From positions 620,001-669,208 of the forward strand of contig BROI01000021.1 of the NCBI GenBank assembly GCA_027923505.1: a stretch of DNA of 49,208 bases. Direction: 5' to 3'. Below are positions 4,187 through 45,480 of the stretch, piece by piece; positions within the stretch are counted from its first letter, which is position 1, and every line of letters begins with the position of its first letter. The translations under genes were made by a program, and so were the position numbers. The notes under the pieces were generated by a model that saw only the letters and a program-made list of their open reading frames with translations, was not told the DNA's origin and searched no databases. Source of the stretch: Mayamaea pseudoterrestris (Eukaryota).

Positions 4187-6989
4187 ATGGAAGCAGGAGA
4201 GCAAAGTAAAAGGGGTGTTAAACGGCCCAATAGCATTGCGTCCATTATCAACGAACAACCCGTAGTCGCCGACGATACCGACATTGACAAAAGTGGAGTA
4301 ATAGAAGACGGCAGTTTGACTCAGCAAGCGCAATCCACTCATTCATCGAGTACCAACACAATTTCGGATGATGCGCAAAGCGCTAGTGCGGCACGAGACG
4401 AACTGGAGGATAGGTCTCTCGGTGGGTCGCCGGGCCATCACCTCGCTACAACAACGTGTGATGGAAGTAATGCCATGAGCCAGGATGAGCTGGACGAATA
4501 TTCGTCTCATATGCCACTGCATCGGTCGGGTTCAGAGCATGAAGCGTTGGAACTAGAGGCAGCGCTTCGCTTTCATCATAATAGACGCGTGCTGTTATCA
4601 CGATTAGATGACACTGTTACCACTGGAAGACTGTGCATGGTACGGAATATCGATTACTCTGATCATAGAGGATTTGTTAAAAGGCAATTGAAACACTCAC
4701 GTCTCCGTTTTCGCTCAGATCAATCTTGCTCGCCGCAACCTTTCTCCGGCCGAAGCACCTTTAATCGCCACCGCGATACAGGCCAATCCACAGCTGACGG
4801 AACTTAAACTATGCTACAATTTATTGGGAGACGCAGGTGCACACATAATAGCTACAGCTTTGCGAAACAATGCTGGACAGCCTCATGGGACCTTGTTAAC
4901 ACTGGACCTTGGTTTTAATGAAATTGGAGACGTTGGCTGCGACGCAATTGCCGTTGCTGGTGTCACTGGCAACTATATAATGCGGTCATTGTACTTGACT
5001 GGGAACAAAATAAAAAAGAATGGCGCATTATCGCTAGCGCGCGCAATTTTGCATGGAACTGGCCTTACGTCGCTATATCTATCGGCGAATACCATTGGTT
5101 CGACAGGCATGACCGCGATTGCCCTTGCAGTCGCGAGGAACGATGAACGGTTAGCTAGTCCGGAAGCGTACGCCATTTCCACTGAAGCCCCTTCCAGACG
5201 AATGGAAAATCTGCATCTCAGCGCTACCTTGGCAAATCAAGATGGGTTTGAAGCAATAGCTGGTTTAGTGCTATCAACTGCATCGCTGAAAGCACTTTGC
5301 CTTTCTGGCAACAACATTGACGATCATGACATGGTTCTTTTGTCGCATGCGCTGGCACAGAACAAGTCCATTCCGCTTGAATCAATCCGTTTGGGTTACA
5401 ACCATATTACCTGTCAAGGAGTCGAGTGCTTCATGAACGCCATATGGGGGTCTTCAACATTACGAGAAGTTATGCTGAATCACAACAAGCTGCAAGATCG
5501 TGGTGCACAGTTGTGCGCGGTGGTACTTACGTCAATATCTCTCCGAATCCTGGATTTATCGTTCAACCGAGTGACTACTGTCGGTATAAAGGCGATTATG
5601 AAGAACTTATCTGAGAACGCCACACTTCACTCGCTCAGCCTCTGTGGCATTCCAATTGATTTAAACGCGTCAAAAGCGGTTTCTTATGCGCTGGCGTATA
5701 ACAGCTCATTGCGAGAACTGTATCTTGACAATTGTTCGACCGGATATTCATCTCAGCGGCACATAGTGGCTGGTGTCGTCTCTAATAGACGTTCTTCGCT
5801 ATCAGTTTTGACCGGCTTTGCGGTTGGCCGTAAGTACTGGTGGCTTTTCGTCATTTGGGTTGATAAAAATGTCTCACGTGTAATTTTCTTGCTTTGGAAG
5901 CCGTTGCGATGACGCTTGGTATGCCACAACTGCCTAGTGGGTGGACGAACGCTCAAGTTTTGAGATTTTTTCAAACCATGTGGAAACAATGGCTGCTCAA
6001 ATCTGGACGAGGGGCTGCACTCACCGACGAACAAGTGGTCCGGGGACCAGCGCCGCCGGCTGCTGTTGCGGCCGCGGCAAAAATAGCTCTCGCCGCGATA
6101 GGATCGTCGGATGCCAACTTCCCGAGGGTTGAACGCGATAAGTTAATGACTGAACGGCCTCCGATAGATGCTGCGCGATCATCGCTAATGGAACGGACAA
6201 GTTCTGGGTCGTTAGCTGTGCCAGAGTTTGCCGATGATTTGAATGGAAATATTGATGAGTGGCTAGACCGTAAATGGCAGAAAGACCTTTATGCTGAGTC
6301 GCCTTTTCCGTCAGCTAATACGAGCAACCCTTTGGAGAACACTGAAAGACGGGAACGAAATTTACAATGGCTCCGAAATCAGTTCCGTTCTCTCAATGAA
6401 GTAGGTCGACTTCCTTTTAATAATGCAGACCTTTGGCAGCTTCACCAATACTATTTTTCTCCGCCGTTTGCTGCCAATCTTGAGAGCGTCAATGGTTCGA
6501 ACTGCTCAAATACTATTGCGAACGATCCATCGCCACGCAATATACATCCTAAGGAGGGCGATCATTACATGGGCAGGTCGGTCTCCTTTCAGACGCTAAA
6601 AAATGCATTCGCCGGCTCGAGCCTCACCCCGAATGTGCATAAGCGACCGCAAGGCGATGCGGATGTTGATAACTGCCCCGCTCCGAAAAAAGCAAAGAGT
6701 CTGAGTAAGCCTCGAATAGGCTACTATCCTCGAATAATGGTACGGGCGTGTCTTTTTTGGCGTGATGTCTGTGAGCCACCTTTCTCACCTGCAATTCCTT
6801 GCCATTCAGGCTAAAATACAATCGCTTGGCACTAAGCCTATGGAACAATCGCTTTCCTTACTAAGACAGCTCCGATATATGGAGAATATTATCTTTATTG
6901 GCAAGGATCCTTACGCCGAGCTTGAGGACTCGAATTCTGAAGAACAGACCCACGCTGATGTTGAAATGATCTTGCTTGATTTGCTATGA
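4187..6989 (+). CDS. RNI-like leucine-rich repeat protein. Introns about 4640-4718, 5830-5900 and 6740-6809; start uncertain
   Basis: Many LxLxxNxIxxxG repeats (LDLGFNEIGDVG, LYLTGNKIKKNG, LCLSGNNIDD, LDLSFNRVTTVG). Four ORF segments join in frame through GT-AG introns. Confidence 0.85.
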
Positions 6990-7460: not shown

Positions 7461-10400
7461 TTACAGGCCCGATAGGTAACCGGCTGCGGCGACTGCCTTT
7501 GGCTTGGAGCCGAAGGGAGAGTAAGATTTTGGTGCCGTCTTGGACGAAGCATGGGAGCTTGTTGCTTGCGCGGCGGAATATGTGCTCTCATTTCCGATCG
7601 AGCTGCTGTTGGAAGCGGGGGTGCGTTTTGTTGGCGCCGAGACAGAGACACTGGATTTCATCGCTTCAGCAGTTTTTAATGCAGAGAGATACGATGATCC
7701 AGTTAAAGCAGCTTTTGGTTTGCCTCCCATGAATGGCGCATAACTGGCGCGCTTCAAATTAGATCCCGCGCCCAAATTTGACATGAAACTTGATCCAGGG
7801 ATGGTGGACACTAGCTTGGCGGGTGACGCAGTGAATGAAGTATCACTTGATGGCAAAGGAGAGGCATTCTTTAAGGCTGACAGGTATGAAGATCCATTGT
7901 CCACAGCCTTGGGCTTGACACCTTGGAACGGAGCATAGCTTGCCTTCTTGCCAGCACTTGCGCTTCCACCGAGGCTTGCCATGTAGTTGGCAGGGGCTGC
8001 AGAAGATGCGGCGGAGCCTTCAACCGGAGCAGGACTTGAGGCAGAGGATGGAGCAGCTCCAGTCAAATTTGACAAGTATCCAGTCTGCTGGGCGGCCTTG
8101 GGCTTGACACCTTGGAACGGAGCATAGCTTGCCTTCTTGCCAGCACTTGCGCTTCCGCCGAGGCTTGCCATGTAGTTGGCAGGGGCTGCAGAAGATGCGG
8201 CGGAGCCTTCAACTGGAGCATGACTTGAGGCGGAGGAAGATGGAGCAGCTCCAGCCAAATTGGACAAGTATCCAGTCTGCTGGGCGGCCTTAGGCTTGAC
8301 ACCTTGGAACGGAGCATAGCTTGCCTTCTTGCCAGCACTTGCGCTTCCACCGAGGCTTGCCATGTAGTTGGCAGGGGCTGCGGAGCCTTCAACCGGAGCA
8401 GGACTTGAGGCAGAGGATGGAGCAGCTCCAGTCAAATTTGACAAGTATCCAGTCTGCTGGGCGGCCTTGGGCTTGACACCTTGGAACGGAGCATAGCTTG
8501 CCTTCTTGCCAGCACTTGCGCTTCCGCCAAGGCTTGCCATGTAGTTGGCAGGGGCTGCAGAAGATGCGGCGGAGCCTTCAACCGGAGCAGGACTTGAGGC
8601 AGAGGAAGAGGATGGAGCAGCTCCAGTCAAATTTGACAAGTATCCAGTCTGCTGGGCGGCCTTGGGCTTGACACCTTGGAACGGAGCATAGCTTGCCTTC
8701 TTGCCAGCACTTGTGCTTCCACCAAGGCTTGCCATGTAGTTGACAGGGGCTGCAGGAGATGCGGAGCCTTCAACCGGAGAAGGACTTGAGGCAGAGGAGG
8801 AGGAGGAGGATGGAGCAGTTCCAGTCAAATTTGACAAGTATCCAGTCTGCTGGGCGGCCTTGGGCTTGACACCCTGGAACGGAGCATAGCTTGCCTTCTT
8901 GCCAGCACTTGCGCTTCCACCAAGGCTTGCCATGTAGTTGGCAGGGGCTGCAGAAGATGCGGCGGAGCCTTCAACCGGAGCAGGACTTGAGGCAGAGGAA
9001 GAGGATGGAGCAGCTCCAGTCAAATTTGACAAGTATCCAGTCTGCTGGGCGGCCTTGGGCTTGACACCTTGGAACGGAGCATAGCTTGCCTTCTTGCCAG
9101 CACTAATGCTTCCACCAAGGCTTGCCATGTAGTTGGCAGGGGCTGCAGAAGATGCGGCAGAGCCTTCAACTGGAGCAGGACTTGAGGCAGAGGAAGAGGA
9201 TGGAGCAGCTCCAGTCAAATTTGACAAGTATCCAGTCTGCTGGGCGGCCTTGGGCTTGACACCTTGGAACGGAGCATAGCTTGCCTTCTTGCCAGCACTT
9301 GCGCTTCCACCAAGGCTTGCCATGTAGTTGGCAGGGGCTGCAGGAGATGCGGAGCCTTCAACCGGAGAAGGACTTGAGGCAGAGGAAGAGGATGGAGCAG
9401 CTCCAGTCAAATTTGACAAGTATCCAGTCTGCTGGGCGGCCTTGGGCTTGACACCTTGGAACGGAGCATAGCTTGCCTTCTTGCCAGCACTTGCGCTTCC
9501 ACCAAGGCTTGCCATGTAGTTGGCAGGGGCTGCAGGAGATGCGGAGCCTTCAACCGGAGAAGGACTTGAGGCAGAAGAGGAGGAGGAAGAGGATGGAGCA
9601 GCTCCAGTCAAATTTGACAAGTATCCAGTCTGCTGGGCGGCCTTGGGCTTGACACCTTGGAACGGAGCATAGCTTGCCTTCTTGCCAGCACTTGCGCTTC
9701 CGCCGAGGCTTGCCATGTAGTTGGCAGGGGCTGCAGAAGATGCGGCGGAGCCTTCAACTGGAGCATGACTTGAGGCGGAGGAAGATGGAGCAGCTCCAGC
9801 CAAATTGGACAAGTATCCAGTCTGCTGGGCAGCCTTGGGCTTGACACCTTGGAACGGAGCATAGCTTGCCTTCTTGCCGGCACTTGTATTTCCACCGAGA
9901 CTTGCCATGTAGTTGGCAGGGGCAGCTGAGGACGCCGACAAAGTTTCAGTTGACGGAGCTGGACTTGATGCGATGGGTGAAGCAGAACTCAAGCTAGCAA
10001 AATATCCGGACTCTTGTACGACCTTTGGCTTGGGGTTGAACCCAGAATAACTTGGCTTCTTCATGACACTCGAGCCTCCAAGTGACGACATGTAATTAGC
10101 TGGCGCAGATGATGTCGAGGCGGAGGTTTTTTGGACTGGACTGGATTCCTTGGCCGCTGGTTTACTTGTAACTCCGTTTAAATGCGCAAAGTACCCACTA
10201 GTTTCGACTGCTTTAGGCTTTGAGTTAAAGCCTGAATAGCTTGGTTTCTTCATAGCCGAGTTGCCTCCTAGTGATTTGAGGTATTCCGCTGGGGCAGCTG
10301 TCAATGCTGCTGCCGCGTGTGAAGTCGTCGAAGCAGCCGGAGCAACCGGAGTGTAGGAAGGCGCTGCTGGTGTAGCCTTGTTCAAGGCGGACAAGTAGGA

Positions 10401-10905
10401 TGGTCCATCCTCAACTACCTTGGGCTTGCCCTTGAAGGGTGCGAAGCGAGCCGGCTTGGTGTATCCTGACGAAGCTCCGAGTGCAGCCCTTCGTTAAAAC
10501 GAACGTGAATTATTATTGTGTAAGATGTTATTTCTGTGTGTGTCATTGATGCAAGTATTGCCATTCGGTCCGCCAAACTTACATATAGTCGGCCGATGAT
10601 GGATTCGATGCCTTGGATTCTGCCGACTCAAAAACTGTTGGCGCCGAAGGTGCGTATGTGATTCCTGGTTGCTGTTGATCTCCAAGCACTGGCTGCGTCT
10701 TTAGTACTCCATTGTCGAGATTGCTCAGGTAGTTCCCGAGTCCAGCATCGACAGCTTGTGGCTTGGACCCTCCTGACGGTGCGTACGATGCTGGGCGAGG
10801 AGCCGACTGAGCGCCGCTGAGAGAGCTGAGGTAGGAGCTGAATCCAGCCGAAGCTCGTCCAGCTTCGAAGGCGAGAAAGATAAGGGCGCCGTGAGAGATC
10901 TTCAT
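7461..10905 (-). CDS. ~1116-aa Ser/Ala/Pro/Gly/Lys-rich repeat protein with signal peptide and probable plastid transit peptide; candidate pyrenoid linker/scaffold. Exons 10905-10583 and 10488-7461
   Basis: N-terminus MKISHGALIFLAFEAGRASAG-FSSYLSSL. A GTAAGT..AAG intron (10582-10489) joins exon 1 in frame to the 977-aa ORF. There are 11 near-identical and 6 degenerate repeat units. Confidence 0.9.
7903..9920 (-). repeat. Coding tandem repeat: 11 copies of a ~180-200-bp unit encoding PANYMASLGGSASAGKKASYAPFQGVKPKAAQQTGYLSNL plus a Ser/Ala/Pro spacer
   Basis: The + strand motif GGAACGGAGCATAGCTTGCCTTCTTGCC recurs 11 times. Unit-length differences are multiples of 3, mostly in Ser runs. Confidence 0.97.
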
Positions 10906-11459
10906 GGTCCTCTTGTATGTTGCTGTAGATAAAAATCCGTCGCGAGGTGATGGAACGAAACGAAAATGTGTGATGCCGATTTCGACGCTTGATGTGCGGT
11001 GTCTTCCGCCCACCGCGCTTTCATTGGCGGCAGGCCAAACGCACGTCACTCTTGTTCACGTTCGTCAATCACCGTCATGCAAGTCATTTCTGGTGCACGT
11101 CAGAGATACTTCTATACCGATCTGGAGTAAGCCATCACGGGCTGTACAGTGCTATGATCGCCAATTCAATAGCCTCCTCACGAGACGAAGGGCCAAAATT
11201 GGGATCGCGGAGGGAGCAAACCCTTGGTCTATATCATGAAAACTCGGAGATGACTCGGATGCGTGGCCATAGATGAGGTACGTACTTCGATGTCACCAAC
11301 AGCCCACAGAGCTGGCCAATGGCCACCTCGAGCGAGGCTGACGCATGCGTCATCGAGGAGCCTCCCACCAGCCTCCCCCCACAGACACACAAATCGAAAA
11401 CGAGCCATCAACCAATTCGTCTCATTAACCAATCCACCCGATTTACCAACAACTACAAC
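10906..11459. promoter_or_regulatory. Shared bidirectional promoter with CRE/CCRE-like bZIP sites
   Basis: ACGTCA at 11043 and 11097, CGTCA at 11063 and 11073, a perfect palindrome TGACGCATGCGTCA at 11339-11352, and several CCAAT boxes. The region lies between two divergent start codons. Confidence 0.55.
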
Positions 11460-12642
11460 ATGAAGATCACCGGTGCTTTCCTCCTCCTCGCCTCTGGCGC
11501 CACTGCCTTCCAGCCTCTTGCAAGCAAGGGTAACAGCCGCGTCTCTCCCGTCTTTTCCTACCTGTCCAGCTTGGGCCAGGTTTCTCCCCTTGGCAGCACT
11601 CCGCAGAACAACGACATTGCCACCCGAGGAAGCGACGTTAGCATCACCAAGAATGATTTCTTTGCTAGACGCGCTGATGAAGACCGCACGGTACGTTCAG
11701 TGACTTTTTGATGGACAAATGTCTTGTTCTTTGATGGATTTGTCGATGCGAGAAACCGCCGAGTTTTTCAACGAACACATGACTCATTTCTTCCCATTGA
11801 TCTTACAGAGACGCTTGGAGGATCGCCTCAACCAACTCGAACGCGAGAACATTCAGGGCCCCAAGATTCGTTCTGGAGGCAAACCAGCTCCAGGTCGCTA
11901 CATGGCAAGTGATCTCAACCCCGCCGCCATCATCTCCGACCGATCGGCCAATGTCAAAGTCCAAGGAGGTTCGCTCAAGACATGGTCGTATGCTAGTCCC
12001 ATGGTCGAGCGCATTCACGTTGTTCTCAAGACGGAGGGCCGACCGCTTGACGCTGATGTTGCCTTGTGGCAGGGACCAGACAACACCCCGCACAAGATGC
12101 GCATTTATGTGGAGGACGGCGCCGAGCGCCCATTCAGTGCAGTCATCGAGACACCAAGAGGGCCCAATACTGTTTCTATCCGAAACACTGGCCAGCTCGA
12201 ATTTCCCCTGAACGCTCATGTCTTGGCTGAAGTCGACGGATCCAACAGCGACTTACCAGCTGCTAAGTCCAACGACCTCAAGACGGAAGCCATGACTATT
12301 CAGGGAGGAGCTCTTCGAACATACCCATTCGATCCAACTGTCGACAGCGTCGCTGTCCTCTTAAAAACTGACGGACGTCCACTTAATGCACGCATTGAGT
12401 TGCTCCAGGGTCCTAATAACAACAAGCAAGTCGTCGAGATCTACACCGAAGATGGGCTTGACCGCCCCTTCTTCATGATCATTGAGACACCAGGAAGCGG
12501 AAATGTTGTTCGCGTCGTTAACTCTGCAACTGTCGAGTTCCCCTTGACGGCTTGGGTTGAAGCACACAAGATTGGAACCTCATCGTCTCCACTGGAGCCA
12601 GTCATTGGCGGCGATGATGATGGCTTCATCCGCCAGTGGTAA
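11460..12642 (+). CDS. PyShell: PyShell (pyrenoid shell) family protein, plastid-targeted, ~354 aa. Exons 11460-11690 and 11809-12642
   Basis: Bipartite presequence MKITGAFLLLASGATA-FQPL. Phase-0 GTACGT..TTACAG intron. Two tandem homologous beta-rich domains: VQGGSLKTW..LKTEGRPLDADVALWQGPDN..IETP..EFPL and IQGGALRTYPF..LKTDGRPLNARIELLQGPNN..IETP..EFPL. This matches the duplicated-domain PyShell/Shell family as I recall it. Confidence 0.82.
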
Positions 12643-13060: not shown

Positions 13061-13757
13061 ATGGAGCGCACTTGTAAGTGAAGTGGTTTGACGAAGAGGT
13101 GCTAGACGATGCTGCATGCAAAAGCTCTCACACATTGGTTTGATTCGTTCGAAGACATTATGATCAAGCCCGATGGCGTCCAACGTGCCCTTGTTGGCGA
13201 AATCATTAAGCGATTTGAAGCCAAAGGATTTAAACTTGTTGCCATGAAATTGACATCGCCAGGAAAAGAACACTTGGAAAAGCATTACGAAGACTTGAAG
13301 GACAAGAAGTTCTTTCCTGGCTTGATCGAATACATGACTAGCGGACCTGTTGTCGCCATGGTTTGGTAAGTTTACGACGAATGCATGCATCGCTTTACCG
13401 TGCCGTAATAATCGCCTTACTCAATGACTCCCTATTGTTACAACAGGGAGGGACGCAATGTCGTTGCTGAAGGCCGAAAAATGCTGGGCGCAACCATGCC
13501 TTCGGAATCGGCGATGGGAACAATTCGTGGAGATTTCTGGTAAGTCGTATTTTCCGTATTTTCATAATTTGTGCGTTGGCTAGACTGTACTCAGAATATT
13601 GCCTGTCATCGTCCTTCGCTGCAGCATTGAAGTCGGTCGCAATATTTGCCATGGATCTGACGCCGTCGATTCGGCCAACAAGGAAATCACCCTTTGGTTT
13701 CCTGAGGGCGTTTCCGAGTGGAATTCGTGTGCGTCAAGCTGGGTTTACGAAGAGTAA
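13061..13757 (+). CDS. NDK: Nucleoside diphosphate kinase. Exons 13061-13073, 13155-13365, 13447-13539 and 13625-13757
   Basis: Spliced product reads [51 protein letters not shown]. All three introns are GTAAGT..AG. Confidence 0.97.
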
Positions 13758-29986: not shown

Positions 29987-32440
29987 TTATAAATCCAGAT
30001 CGCCAGCACTCATGTAGTCGGCTTGCGTCGTTATAAATAGACGCCGGGGACCCACTGCATCACCCATTAGAATCCCCAATGTCTGATCGGCAAGAGCAGC
30101 ATCGTCGGCGGTCACTCTTAGCAGTTTTCTCGTCATGGGGTCCATGGTAGTGTCCCAGAGCTGTCCTGGCATCATCTCGCCAAGCCCTTTGAACCGCTGT
30201 ATCGATACTTTCCCAGACGATATAGCATTGTCCACTTCTTGCGGGCCGCTCAAGGCAAGCAGCATAACAATGACTTCGTCTCGTTCTTTGTCGTCAAAAG
30301 CGTACACTTCCTTTCTTGTCCGTCCACTTCCAGTTGACACTTTGTATAGAGGCGGCTGCGCGATGAAAACGTGCCCTCGTTCAATAAGCTCTTTCTGATA
30401 ACGGTAAAAGAAAGTCAAGAGTAACACCCGAATATGGGCACCATCAACGTCTGCGTCAGTCATGATGATAACCTTGCCGTAGCGAATCGATTTGGAATCG
30501 AAGTCGGCACCCTTGACACCCAAGCCCAACGCTGAAATTAAACCTTGCAGCTCATTGTTTTGATAGATGCGCTCAGCTGCTGCCCGCTCAATATTTAAAA
30601 TCTTGCCACGAAGGGGAAGAATTGCCTGCGTCCTTCGGTCGCGTCCTTGCTTGGCAGATCCGGCTGCTGAGTCTCCTTCAACGATAAATATTTCCGATTC
30701 ATCAATGTCACGCGAGGCACAGTCTGAGAGTTTACCAGGAAGGATGGCCGATGTCAATAGCGTCTTTCTCCGAACCATATCTCGCGCAGCTTTTGCCGCC
30801 GCAGCAGCTTTTGCTGCACTCGTTGCCTTTTCATATATTGCGTCTAGCAGTTCGGGACGGAAGTCAAAAAGGGTGGTGAGTTCCATCGTAACGACCGAGT
30901 CGACGGCGGGACGAACTTCTGGATTACCAAGGCGTCCCTTAGTTTGTCCCTCGAATTCTGGATCGGCCACAGAGACAGATATAATAGCTGTAAGGCCTTC
31001 TCTGATAAATTCGCCGGGTATGTTCCCAGACGCTTCTTTGGACTTGCTGAGCCGTTTAGCAGTTTGATTTATAGTTCTCGTCAAACAAGCTTTAAGTCCT
31101 TCCACGTGGGAGCCACCATCGCGGGTTCGTATATTGTTGCAAAAAGAGAGTATAGATTCGGTGTACATGTCTGACGACCATCGAAGGGCGACCGAAACGC
31201 CAACAGAAGGTCTACCGTCACTAGCAGGGCTCGTGCCAGTGATGAAAATGGTGGATTCGTCAATCGATAAAATGCCAGTTAATGGATCAGACGGAAGGTC
31301 TACTACAGTCCCCGCTGTTTTGGATCTTTTCACTTTCGTTATCTTCGAGGATTTTGTAAATAAGGGGGTCTTGGACTGACATAAAAGCTCCACGTATTCA
31401 ATCAGTCCGCCGGCGTGATAGAAGACCTTCAGCCTATTCTTCACCTTAGGCATGATTCGTTCATCCTTTAGCGTAAGAACTAAACCGGGATTGAGATAGG
31501 CGATCTCGTCCATTCGACTTCGCAAACGACTTGATTCAAAAGTGATACAAGGCATTCCATCCACCCCTTTAAAAACGAGCATATCAGGCAAGAATGTGAC
31601 AATCGTCCCAGACTCACGCGCCGATAAGAGACCATTTAACAATTCAAGGTTTTCTTTTCGTTGTAAAAGATCAATTCGATCATCATCGTCAATCGAAATG
31701 CTATCGAGTCGCTCAAGTTCTTCCGCTACATCTGGATCCATAATTCCTGCCGGCTGTTTCGCGTCAACTTGCAGACTCTCCACGGGAACTCCTCGTCGGA
31801 AGCGCATGCTATATCGGGTCCCAAGTCGATCTACAGCGACGCTAACGCGGTCACTGAGCGCATTAACGACACTAATACCAACGCCGTGAAGACCCCCCGA
31901 CGTTTTGTATCCACTGTCCGATTCTTGATTATTGAACTTTCCGCCCGCGTGCAAAACAGTCAGTACAGTCTCTAATGAACTTTTTTGCGTCACTGGATGA
32001 ATACTCGTTGGAATCCCTCTTCCATCATCCATGACCGTCACGGATCCATCCTGGTGAATGGTAGTGCATACAATCTTGGCGTGGCCGGCCAAGGCTTCGT
32101 CGACCGAATTGTCTACGACTTCCCAGACCAAATGATGCAAGCCATCCGGTCCAGTCGAGCCAATATACATGCCGGGTCTTTTGCGGACAGGGTCTAGACC
32201 TTCTAAAACAGTAATTTGGTCGGCATCGTATGCTCCATTTATTTGGTCTTGCTGACTGAGAGTGTTAATGCTGCTTGAGATGGTGCTTGCTGCCATGCAC
32301 CTTCGAGATTGTCGAGTGAACGATGGTCCATCGCCGAACAAACTGTGTTTCGAAACAGTTTGATAATGCAACTGAAATCCAATGGCACAGCTATGGAACA
32401 AAAACACTATTTGCCACAAATGCTTGCTTGGAACACTCAT
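29987..32440 (-). CDS. gyrB: DNA gyrase subunit B, organelle-targeted (probably plastid)
   Basis: [65 protein letters not shown] and QRFKGLGEM. Presequence ..[10 protein letters not shown]. Confidence 0.97.
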
Positions 32441-32669
32441 GGTAGCGTCAAATATGCGAACTTGCCCCGGCGATGAAAATGAAGGGTTGTCCATGGCGAC
32501 GACGAAAAGAAACATCATAACCAAGCGGCAATGAATGTGATAAATGACTGTCATTTATACAGTACGCATATCTTTTGTGAGGCTCCTACCGGTACTCATC
32601 CCGAGGCCAATCATTTATTTCGCGATTCATAATGTATGTATTCGTGTCGATAGGCACTACGTAGGCACC

Positions 32670-44446: not shown

Positions 44447-45480
44447 TTACTTACTGGCAACTGCGATTGGCTGTCTTCTTCTTTGGTGCCGCTGTTGATG
44501 CCTTGGAAGCGAGCGAGAGTAAGCAAATGTTCCAACAATGGCGATAGCCGATCCAAGGACAGTGTTTCGTTCCATGGCTTCGTGAAAACAACGGCCGAGA
44601 AGAACAATGATAATGACGCGTTTGGCTGTATTTAATACAGAACGATACAGCGCCAACCTGTGCAGTAAAGCCAAAGCCAAACTCGTTGTAGATGTAGAAG
44701 CAAAGCCACTAAGCACAATGTTGTAGACAAGCGTATAAGTCCCATGCTTTGCGACGGCAGCGTTCCACTCGGCCGGCAAAGTTGACATTTCCGTGATGGC
44801 GACCATGGGGACCGTGCATATAAAGGAAATGATATTCGTGACAGCATACACCTGTTTGGGCCGTTTGTTAGGAGGATTGATGGGCGAAAGGACCATCATT
44901 GATCTTGGAACTGATCGTTATTTGCCCACATTGGCGGCATCCATGTTCTTATTTTTTTTGTCACCCTTGAGTGCCTTGGTGACAGATCCTCCAAGCTTTC
45001 CCTTTAAAGCAGCCGCCAACGTTGCCGCCATAGAAGCATATGCAAAAGCAGTGTAGTTGATGTTCACTCCCTTGCCTTCTGACAGATGCGAGTTTACAAT
45101 CTCCGACAATGGGCAGCAACATGAGGTGCGCAAGCATCGGGCTTGATATCGGCAGGCGGAATACATAACTCCAACAACCGCAGCAAATACAGGCTCATGC
45201 CGACAAGAAAAACTGACGGCACCGACAGCCGACGCCAGACGGACCCAGCATGCGCCAAAGCCGCAAAAGCCCGATGGGAATGCACGAGGCAATGTCCTGC
45301 GCTGTCAAACTGAGCCTCCAGTGACTCCACATGACGAGTGACCAGACGATACCAACCACTAACTACAGCGGCAAGAAACCACGCATGAAGCTTACTACGC
45401 CTTCTTTGTTAAAATGTGTTGCAGAATCGTGTTGTCGGTACGCCAAGCCCACCAAGAGGAGCGCCGAAGGAGGAATGTTG
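44447..45480 (-). pseudogene. Triose-phosphate/phosphate translocator-family gene with many indels (pseudogene or low-quality consensus)
   Basis: Fragments in shifting frames: AHAGSV, GAVSF, EPVFAAVVG, AFAYASMA..AALKGKL, LSGF, SVLNTAKRVIII and GSAIAIVGTFAYS. A GT-AG intron is retained at 44929-44852. Confidence 0.75.

Follow-up and report, generated by a model that had tools for sequence, protein, structure and literature searches.

Does a gene that stands head to head with a PyShell gene in a diatom encode a scaffold of the pyrenoid? About a fifth of global CO2 fixation takes place in diatom pyrenoids, and to our knowledge PYCO1 is the only linker known in them, confined to Phaeodactylum. 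The locus that raises the question lies in Mayamaea pseudoterrestris, a freshwater raphid pennate diatom of the Sellaphorales, within a stretch of 49,208 bases of contig BROI01000021.1 (assembly GCA_027923505.1, positions 620,001 to 669,208; hereafter, the window). A plus-strand gene for a PyShell, the protein whose lattice encases the diatom pyrenoid, and a minus-strand gene for a long tandem-repeat protein (hereafter, the repeat protein) diverge there from a short spacer. A first-pass annotation had taken the two genes as a shell-plus-scaffold cassette in which the repeat protein couples the shell to the Rubisco matrix. Here, we report that the PyShell is genuine and that the repeat protein is, by the features of its sequence, a well-founded candidate for a pyrenoid scaffold.

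Linker-like properties of the repeat protein

The product of the minus-strand gene is 1116 amino acids long (about 106 kDa) and highly basic (isoelectric point, pI, of 9.84; 82 Lys and Arg versus 28 Asp and Glu). It contains 52 Tyr, zero Trp, and zero Cys, and its composition is dominated by Ser (20.6%), Ala (20.5%), Gly (9.8%), and Pro (9.3%), which together make up 60% of the residues, followed by Lys (6.9%) and Tyr (4.7%). The repeating module, ~45 residues long, carries three Tyr-centered motifs, i.e., xNYMxSLGG, KKxSYxPFxGxKPK, and xGYLxxL, and Ser/Ala/Pro spacers lie between the modules; a typical unit reads APANYMASLGG-SASAG-KKASYAPFQGVKPK-AAQQ-TGYLSNL, followed by a Ser-rich spacer. 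There are about 17 modules in total: more divergent units flank a near-identical core, degenerate units are found in exon 1 and at the C terminus, and the units of exon 2 are 59 to 67 residues apart (14 anchor-pattern matches). Short motifs of the SYLSSL type occur 33 times along the mature protein. AlphaFold2 modeling of three units from a single sequence, which is weak evidence, gave a mean predicted local distance difference test score (pLDDT) of 44.5 and zero secondary structure, with a slight rise of confidence over the motif blocks; the repeat protein is predicted to be intrinsically disordered.

How do these properties compare with those by which Rubisco linkers are sought? The FLIPPer criteria, as they stand in the accessible part of that paper, are a largely disordered chain and repeated elements 20 to 120 residues apart (PMC11570498), and the available text of an Ulva preprint gives at least three repeats and a pI above 8 (10.64898/2026.07.16.738900). 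In the repeat protein we found the disorder (by the single-sequence pLDDT, weak as it is, and by the share of Ser, Ala, Gly, and Pro), at least three conserved elements at a spacing within the FLIPPer range, and a pI well above the threshold. As far as a sequence can tell, it thus shows every feature by which Rubisco linkers are searched for.

Both genes carry plastid-type presequences, as the first-pass annotation had claimed. The hallmark of plastid import in stramenopiles, used as a criterion in the accessible text of the PyShell preprint, is an endoplasmic reticulum signal followed by an ASAFAP-type site. Read from the sequence, the repeat protein begins with MKISHGALIFLAFEAGRASAG/FSSYLSSL (the slash marks the likely cleavage site), i.e., a signal peptide and then Phe, and the PyShell begins with MKITGAFLLLASGATA/FQP, i.e., a signal peptide with an ASAFAP-type site. 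On this reading, the repeat protein would be taken up into the plastid.

Sequence searches of the Protein Data Bank (PDB) with the module and with the protein gave chance matches only (ropporin, E 1.7; antibody heavy chains, E 0.016–0.17), a Pfam scan of the repeat protein gave no credible domain, including no known cell-wall domain, and a search of the ESM Atlas gave no usable match. Because none of the protein-collection searches returned the repeat protein of the window, although its PyShell neighbor is present as GKY99472.1, the gene appears to be without a deposited protein model; it may be missing or mis-modeled in the annotation, perhaps through masking of its tandem array.

Identity of the PyShell and transcription of both genes

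The exon-2 open reading frame (ORF) of the plus-strand gene matches PDB entry 8wqp_A (TpPyShell1) with E 3.1e-100, ORF residues 74–288 being aligned, and the Pfam family PF25192 (DiatomPyrShell) with E 6.4e-90 (300.6 bits against a cutoff of 27; profile positions 3–208 of 209). Both conserved regions of the family, CR1 and CR2, are present, and the spliced product is identical to GKY99472.1 (MPSEU_000901500, P0140), a protein of Mayamaea pseudoterrestris that is annotated as hypothetical. Sequence homology thus proves the plus-strand gene to be a genuine PyShell, as the first-pass annotation had proposed, and this half of the locus is known biology already. The PyShell domain is acidic, with a pI of about 5. 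Please note two segments that many PyShells share in an alignment of 40 homologues: RxLExRLxxLE in the N-tail, outside the folded domain (window 11809–11850), and EPVIGGD...(R)xW with an aromatic last residue in the C-tail (window 12600–12639). In the published PyShell structure, the C-terminal domain touches a pocket of the adjacent monomer.

The coordinates of both genes and of the spacer between them are listed in Table 1. Contigs from runs X2, X3, and X4, which come from one study, skip exactly the introns of the two genes, and the contig from run X1 retains both. Since their contigs miss both introns, we take X2–X4 to be of RNA origin, and the exact skipping of these introns confirms both gene models and shows that the two genes are transcribed and spliced. 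Contig depth in this single study is unfit for ranking genes. The intron of the repeat-protein gene is GT..AG on the minus strand if the cut is shifted one base to the right, which is an equally good fit. Position 10798 is A in the window and in X2, and G in the X1, X3, and X4 contigs; RNA editing was considered and rejected in favor of an allele or assembly difference, because X1 keeps the introns and also shows G.

Table 1. Features of the divergent gene pair in the window (slash, predicted cleavage site)
Feature	Position	Strand	Remarks
Repeat protein, exon 1	10905-10582	-	Signal peptide, cleavage ..SAG/F, first SYLSSL, one degenerate module, ends ..ADY(M)
Repeat protein, intron	10581-10488	-	94 nt; skipped in X2-X4 contigs, retained in X1
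Repeat protein, exon 2 (stop included)	10487-7461	-	15 anchor-pattern modules and a terminal partial module; protein end ..GYLSGL
Near-identical tandem array within exon 2	7906-9923	-	Period 192 nt (64 aa), 10.5 copies, 92% matches (Tandem Repeats Finder)
SYLSSL of the repeat protein	10819-10836	-	Residues 24-29
Spacer between the divergent start codons	10906-11459		554 bp; presumed shared promoter
Two TGACGT sites	11043-11048, 11097-11102	-
Palindrome TGACGCATGCGTCA	11339-11352		Two TGACGC half-sites at 11339 and 11347; 108-121 bp upstream of the PyShell ATG
PyShell, exon 1	11460-11690	+	Signal peptide, ASAFAP-type cleavage site GATA/FQP, flexible N-tail with FSYLSSLG
SYLSSL in the PyShell N-tail	11556-11573	+	Residues 33-38
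PyShell, intron	11691-11808	+	118 nt, GT..AG; skipped in X2, X3, X4 contigs, retained in X1
PyShell, exon 2 (stop included)	11809-12642	+	RRLEDRLNQLE segment, CR1 and CR2 beta-sheet domain, C-tail ending RQW

A motif common to the repeat protein and PyShell tails

The hexapeptide SYLSSL near both N termini, to which the first-pass annotation had pointed, is indeed there, and it is the sole hexapeptide common to the window PyShell and the repeat protein; of 2000 shuffled PyShell sequences, 25 had any hexapeptide in common with the repeat protein. The closest PyShell homologues have SYLS[SN]LG at the same site. A protein search with the PyShell gave 3179 homologues, and the tail motifs were counted in the best 120 plus P0140, i.e., in 121 proteins, 57 of which were classed as full-length with a signal peptide by a crude filter; these proteins are related and do not count as independent events. 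The strict pattern [YF][LMF][SAKG][SNAHG]L, derived from the window units only, is present in the pre-domain tail of 5 of the 57 (shuffle mean 0.24, maximum 3 in 1000 shuffles), and a looser pattern in that of 12 (shuffle mean 0.8, maximum 4). All of the matches fall within positions 33–56, and neither pattern was found in the folded domain of the 57 PyShells. FSYLSNLGGG is also carried by P0011, P0013, and P0014, which the full-length filter missed. Judging from these counts, the motif is genuinely characteristic of some PyShell N-tails, though of a minority only; in the available text of the PyShell preprint, this region of TpPyShell1 (its N-terminal 68 residues) is reported as disordered and unresolved. 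The sharing of the motif goes beyond chance, and the motif comes back in orthologues, in the N-tails of other PyShells, and at the C termini of relatives.

The repeat family

A profile of ten window units, run over 1.84 billion representative proteins, gave 62 matches at E<=1e-3, 25 at E<=1e-10, and 8 at E<=1e-30; the same profile matched 15 proteins in a named-protein collection, and a protein search with exon 2 returned four relatives (P0001–P0004). P0001 (777 amino acids, 45% identity) has a near-identical presequence followed by FSSYLSSLSG. P0002, the product of another Mayamaea gene (MPSEU_000014600), has a coiled-coil head, 11 units, and the ending ..SYLSNLRN; a third family gene of this diatom, MPSEU_001057200, encodes 1971 amino acids, and a Pseudo-nitzschia pungens transcript (P0167) is a further member. 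When 49 units from five divergent proteins, namely the repeat protein and P0001–P0004, were compared, the first aromatic position was Tyr in 45 and the third was Tyr or Phe in all 49, the second being fixed by the way the units were picked; the spacers between the modules are not conserved across these five proteins. In a Pfam scan of 66 family members, 60 had no family at E<=0.001, and the matches of the other six were sub-threshold or isolated and looked spurious. Full-text literature searches gave no description of the repeat family or its motifs, the motif-string matches listed being unrelated to diatoms, and the repeat protein and its small motif family appear to be undescribed and uncharacterized.

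Both ends of these proteins are striking. Y[LMF]xx[LMF]-COOH is the exact C terminus in 21 of the 62 representatives (shuffle mean 0.02, maximum 1 in 500 shuffles). The window protein ends in GYLSGL (7464–7481, minus strand), which is of the same type, and among the 21 the ending is often GGGYLDGL (proteins with this type of ending include, e.g., P0125, P0126, P0128, P0131, P0152, P0167, P0175, and P0176). At the other end, the predicted cleavage site is followed by F, W, Y, or L in those family members that have a signal peptide, as judged by a heuristic and by eye, and the first motif directly follows the cleavage residue in the window protein, P0001, P0149, P0165, P0155, and P0125.

Five paralogues, i.e., P0137, P0167 (Pseudo-nitzschia pungens), P0175, P0176, and P0002, are ~1000 amino acids long or more and combine a plastid-type presequence with a long coiled-coil or charged region and several KKSYSPFGGGKPK units; except for P0002, they end in GGGYL[DG][GE]L. 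From their sequences, they look like organizer proteins that use the same motif. In this they are reminiscent of the SAGA-type proteins of Chlamydomonas.

Conservation of the pair, the spacer, and the neighboring genes

The two genes diverge head to head with 554 bp between their start codons, practically the ~555 bp of the first-pass annotation, and the flanking genes, for a leucine-rich repeat (LRR) protein (4692–5912) and a nucleoside diphosphate kinase (NDK; 13109–13369), are unrelated, as it had also stated. Is the pairing conserved, as a cassette of shell and scaffold would imply? Products orthologous to exon 1 of the repeat-protein gene are P0132, P0133, P0134, and P0136; P0132 and P0136 are 81% and 85% identical to the window product, and both end at the same intron. 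The longest contig has 8936 nt for P0132 as well as for the PyShells P0007 (86% identical to the window PyShell) and P0139, and 2714 nt for P0136 as well as for the PyShell P0143 (98% identical). Because these lengths are equal, it is hinted that the repeat gene and a PyShell gene share one contig in two close relatives. In these putative syntenic relatives, exon 1 of the repeat protein (81%, 85%) diverges faster than one paired PyShell (86%, 98%), as one would expect of a disordered protein whose short motifs are conserved.

Beyond these two relatives, the pairing was not seen in 78 further PyShell loci, most of which are uninformative. A metagenome scan with the PyShell gave 582 confirmed matches, and from the best 80 of them 78 loci were kept, with 54–73% identity. 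Low-complexity ORFs beside the PyShell in the 15 of these loci that exceed 4 kb were only spurious frames in high-GC DNA, 11 of the 15 having a GC content above 0.6, unlike diatom DNA. What stands of the first-pass interpretation is the identity of the PyShell, a real and spliced neighbor, the linker-like properties of that neighbor, and a motif shared beyond chance; the two-gene cassette itself is unproven and weakly supported.

The spacer gives a hint of its own. According to the accessible part of a study of CO2-responsive promoters in P. tricornutum, TGACGT/C on both strands is a CO2/cyclic AMP element targeted by PtbZIP11 (PMC11142338). Four TGACGY sites lie in the 554-bp spacer versus 68 in the whole window, where about 0.77 would be expected per 554 bp (Poisson P about 0.008, uncorrected for other motifs possibly tried). 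The cluster may hint at a CO2-linked regulation of the spacer, and co-regulation of the pair is unproven. Separately, the X2–X4 contigs end at ~10949–10960 and ~11398–11402 and leave the middle of the spacer uncovered; contig ends are not transcript ends, and we do not count this as evidence. An origin of exon 1 of the two genes by inverted duplication was rejected (0 inverted repeats at seed 8; BLASTP E 0.15).

The window is diatom nuclear DNA with a GC content of about 0.46–0.58. The remainder of it holds housekeeping genes and no further pyrenoid gene; a nuclear gene (29987–32554, minus strand) whose product, a DNA gyrase B subunit, is probably organellar, and a gene fragment of the triose-phosphate/phosphate translocator family (44447–44917, minus strand) are unrelated to the present finding.

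Observations that weigh against a scaffold, and alternative explanations

Several observations weigh against a pyrenoid scaffold. The module was found in 0 of the 78 other PyShell loci, by pattern and by profile (the best profile E among them is 0.097 versus 8e-264 for the window), a weak negative in that only 19 of the 78 have more than 1.1 kb upstream and none is more than 73% identical. The contigs that carry the Mayamaea paralogues P0002 and P0155 have 2,994,718 and 278,135 bases, the one with the other Mayamaea PyShells listed (P0014, P0015, and P0021) has 2,775,980 bases, and the one with the window PyShell has 669,208 bases; since the two paralogues are on other contigs than the four Mayamaea PyShells seen, pairing is not a rule for the repeat family. 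Head-to-head neighbors are common in so compact a genome, the accessible text of the genome paper giving 30.6 Mb and 11,019 genes (PMC9724779). The motif is present in only a minority of PyShells, and its N-proximal copies sit in the expected transit-peptide region and might be lost by cleavage. The motif counts among the relatives are partly circular, the family having been defined by a motif-containing profile, which does not apply to the exact C-terminal placement. Nam et al. report no ~60-amino acid repeat protein among the pyrenoid proteins of Thalassiosira pseudonana, and for this reason the repeat family may be lineage-restricted or not pyrenoidal. Finally, the stickers of PYCO1 are absent. 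According to the part of the source available, PYCO1 (Phatr3_J49957), the Rubisco linker of Phaeodactylum tricornutum, is disordered with a pI of 10.03 and six ~80-amino acid tandem repeats, in which KWSPRGGS binds the Rubisco small subunit and GTGYNP self-associates (PMC10288592). Neither sticker is found in the repeat protein, and no family match contains KWSP or GYNP, the only WSP, in P0181, not being a KWSP.

The most probable of the alternative explanations is that the two genes are chance neighbors, i.e., that a plastid-imported repeat protein works outside the pyrenoid (in thylakoids, the nucleoid, another condensate, or the import pathway) and that SYLSSL is a targeting or processing feature. 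The frequency of divergent pairs in a compact genome, the 78 loci without the module, and the paralogues that are not near the PyShell genes seen would all be expected of it, and so would the first motif right after the cleavage residue, in the transit-peptide zone, of the window protein and the five relatives named above. A presequence feature, however, does not explain a motif at the extreme C terminus of 21 of the 62 relatives, and 33 copies of the same motif are spread over the mature protein; its spacing, charge, and disorder are all of the linker type, and the pair is seemingly kept in two close relatives. We consider chance neighbors unlikely, though to be taken seriously.

That the repeat protein is instead secreted, as a frustule-associated or adhesive-mucilage protein whose Tyr/Lys/Ser-rich repeats serve in cross-linking or in binding silica or polysaccharide, seems improbable to us. 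Its composition, rich in Ser, Ala, Gly, Pro, Lys, and Tyr, is broadly like that of repetitive diatom cell-wall and adhesive proteins, and it comes with a signal peptide. Mayamaea is a gliding benthic diatom ("gliding motility" being a keyword in the available record of PMC9724779). Nevertheless, the window protein and nearly all of its full-length relatives have Phe, Leu, Trp, or Tyr after the predicted cleavage, which is the ASAFAP-type hallmark, the motif is common to the N-tails of plastid PyShells, and the protein has no Cys and no known cell-wall domain that we could find.

As a special case of the scaffold explanation, the repeat protein might be a divergent PYCO1 orthologue and its family the wider PYCO1 family of pennate diatoms, given a similar motif grammar and order (in both, TGY comes a few residues after a basic block that contains aromatic-S/A-P-x-G) and the basic, disordered, tandem-repeated nature of PYCO1 with its ~80-amino acid units, but this is very improbable, as the repeat protein has no Trp, the profile search of 1.84 billion representatives brought up no protein with KWSP or GYNP, no PYCO1 chain of the PDB sequence set was matched by profile or protein, and the PYCO1 authors, in the text available, found no homologues by BLAST (PMC10288592). 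No PYCO1-like match was thus seen in either set, the PYCO1 repeats themselves not having been compared. Y-S/A-P-F-x-G would then be the counterpart of W-S-P-R-G-G, and TGYL that of GTGYNP, but these likenesses are no more than a lead.

A possible role in the pyrenoid

The scaffold explanation is the one that we favor, because the repeat protein has the properties by which linkers are sought and because one motif is common to this linker-like protein, a PyShell tail, and the C termini of relatives. Stated in full, it says that the repeat protein is a multivalent pyrenoid scaffold or tether that binds Rubisco and/or the shell, a proposal to which we give about even chances; its pyrenoid location and its binding partners would follow from sequence features and company. 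The repeated Tyr motifs would act as stickers on an acidic oligomeric partner, which may be Rubisco or else the PyShell lattice at its inner face, and perhaps also on each other, and such multivalent binding would condense or tether the pyrenoid matrix. Acidic partners are likely, and the PyShell domain, with its pI of about 5, is acidic. A single YLxxLG on the flexible N-tail of the neighboring PyShell paralogue could plug the shell into the same network; this use of a linker motif by a shell tail would parallel the shared Rubisco-binding motifs of green-algal pyrenoids. Indeed, the accessible text of the Ulva preprint states that the Rubisco-binding motif of the linker recurs in structural pyrenoid proteins of Chlamydomonas and Ulva (10.64898/2026.07.16.738900).

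A wider proposal, which we put forward tentatively and hold to be rather doubtful, is that the Tyr module (xYMxSLGG / KxSYxPFGxKPK / GYLxxL) is a sticker code of diatom pyrenoids and the red-lineage counterpart of that Chlamydomonas/Ulva motif. The window protein would then be the missing linker of diatoms that have no PYCO1, the copy in the PyShell tail would tether the shell, and the copies at the extreme C terminus of a third of the plastid-targeted family would extend the code to long coiled-coil forms, as SAGA-like organizers. Two 2026 reviews, in the parts accessible, name no diatom linker besides PYCO1. Seemingly without a deposited model, the repeat protein would have escaped proteomic searches against the annotation.

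Whatever its outcome, the locus gives a concrete, cloneable scaffold candidate together with a motif that is searchable in every diatom proteome, a motif by which a PyShell paralogue and a number of uncharacterized plastid proteins are connected to a linker-like protein. If the scaffold explanation is right, it would reveal the assembly logic of the red-type pyrenoid and supply new parts for synthetic pyrenoid engineering; if it fails, what is left is a PyShell gene like any other, beside an unrelated neighbor that encodes a disordered protein.

Comparison with known systems

The plus-strand gene is a member of the family of TpPyShell1 (PF25192), with both conserved regions; this paralogue has an FSYLSSLG in its N-tail and an RRLEDRLNQLE segment, features of only part of the family. 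With PYCO1 the repeat protein shares the nature of a basic, mostly disordered, tandem-repeated protein of a pennate diatom plastid (plastid location being our assignment for the window protein), with two kinds of aromatic-centered short stickers per repeat set in low-complexity spacers. PYCO1, in contrast, has six ~80-amino acid repeats with KWSPRGGS and GTGYNP, whereas the window protein has ~17 modules of ~64 amino acids with Tyr motifs, no Trp, and GYLSGL as its C terminus. For PYCO1, it has been demonstrated that it binds Rubisco and phase-separates; for the window protein, both would be predictions.

CsoS2 of alpha-carboxysomes is likewise basic, repetitive, and disordered, is encoded beside shell genes, and ties Rubisco to the shell. 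It is bacterial, operon-encoded, and unrelated in sequence, whereas the window locus is a eukaryotic divergent pair. Closer to diatoms, DPC3 of Thalassiosira pseudonana is a proposed adaptor between matrix and shell (Nam et al., preprint), in a study that reports no linker analogue and leaves the connection of shell and matrix open. DPC3, whose sequence predicts no function, is the candidate for the part that the first-pass annotation gives to the repeat protein, that of a go-between of shell and Rubisco matrix.

The green linkers EPYC1, CsLinker, and SUPA1 have 5–6 helical stickers and no sequence relation to the repeat protein, which has its ~17 modules without a predicted helix and would have as its partner either a Rubisco of the red type (form ID) or a protein shell. 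What they have in common with it are conserved elements 20–120 residues apart, disorder, and a high pI, and, beyond these, a linker motif that recurs in other pyrenoid proteins, here putatively in the PyShell tail and at the C termini of the relatives.

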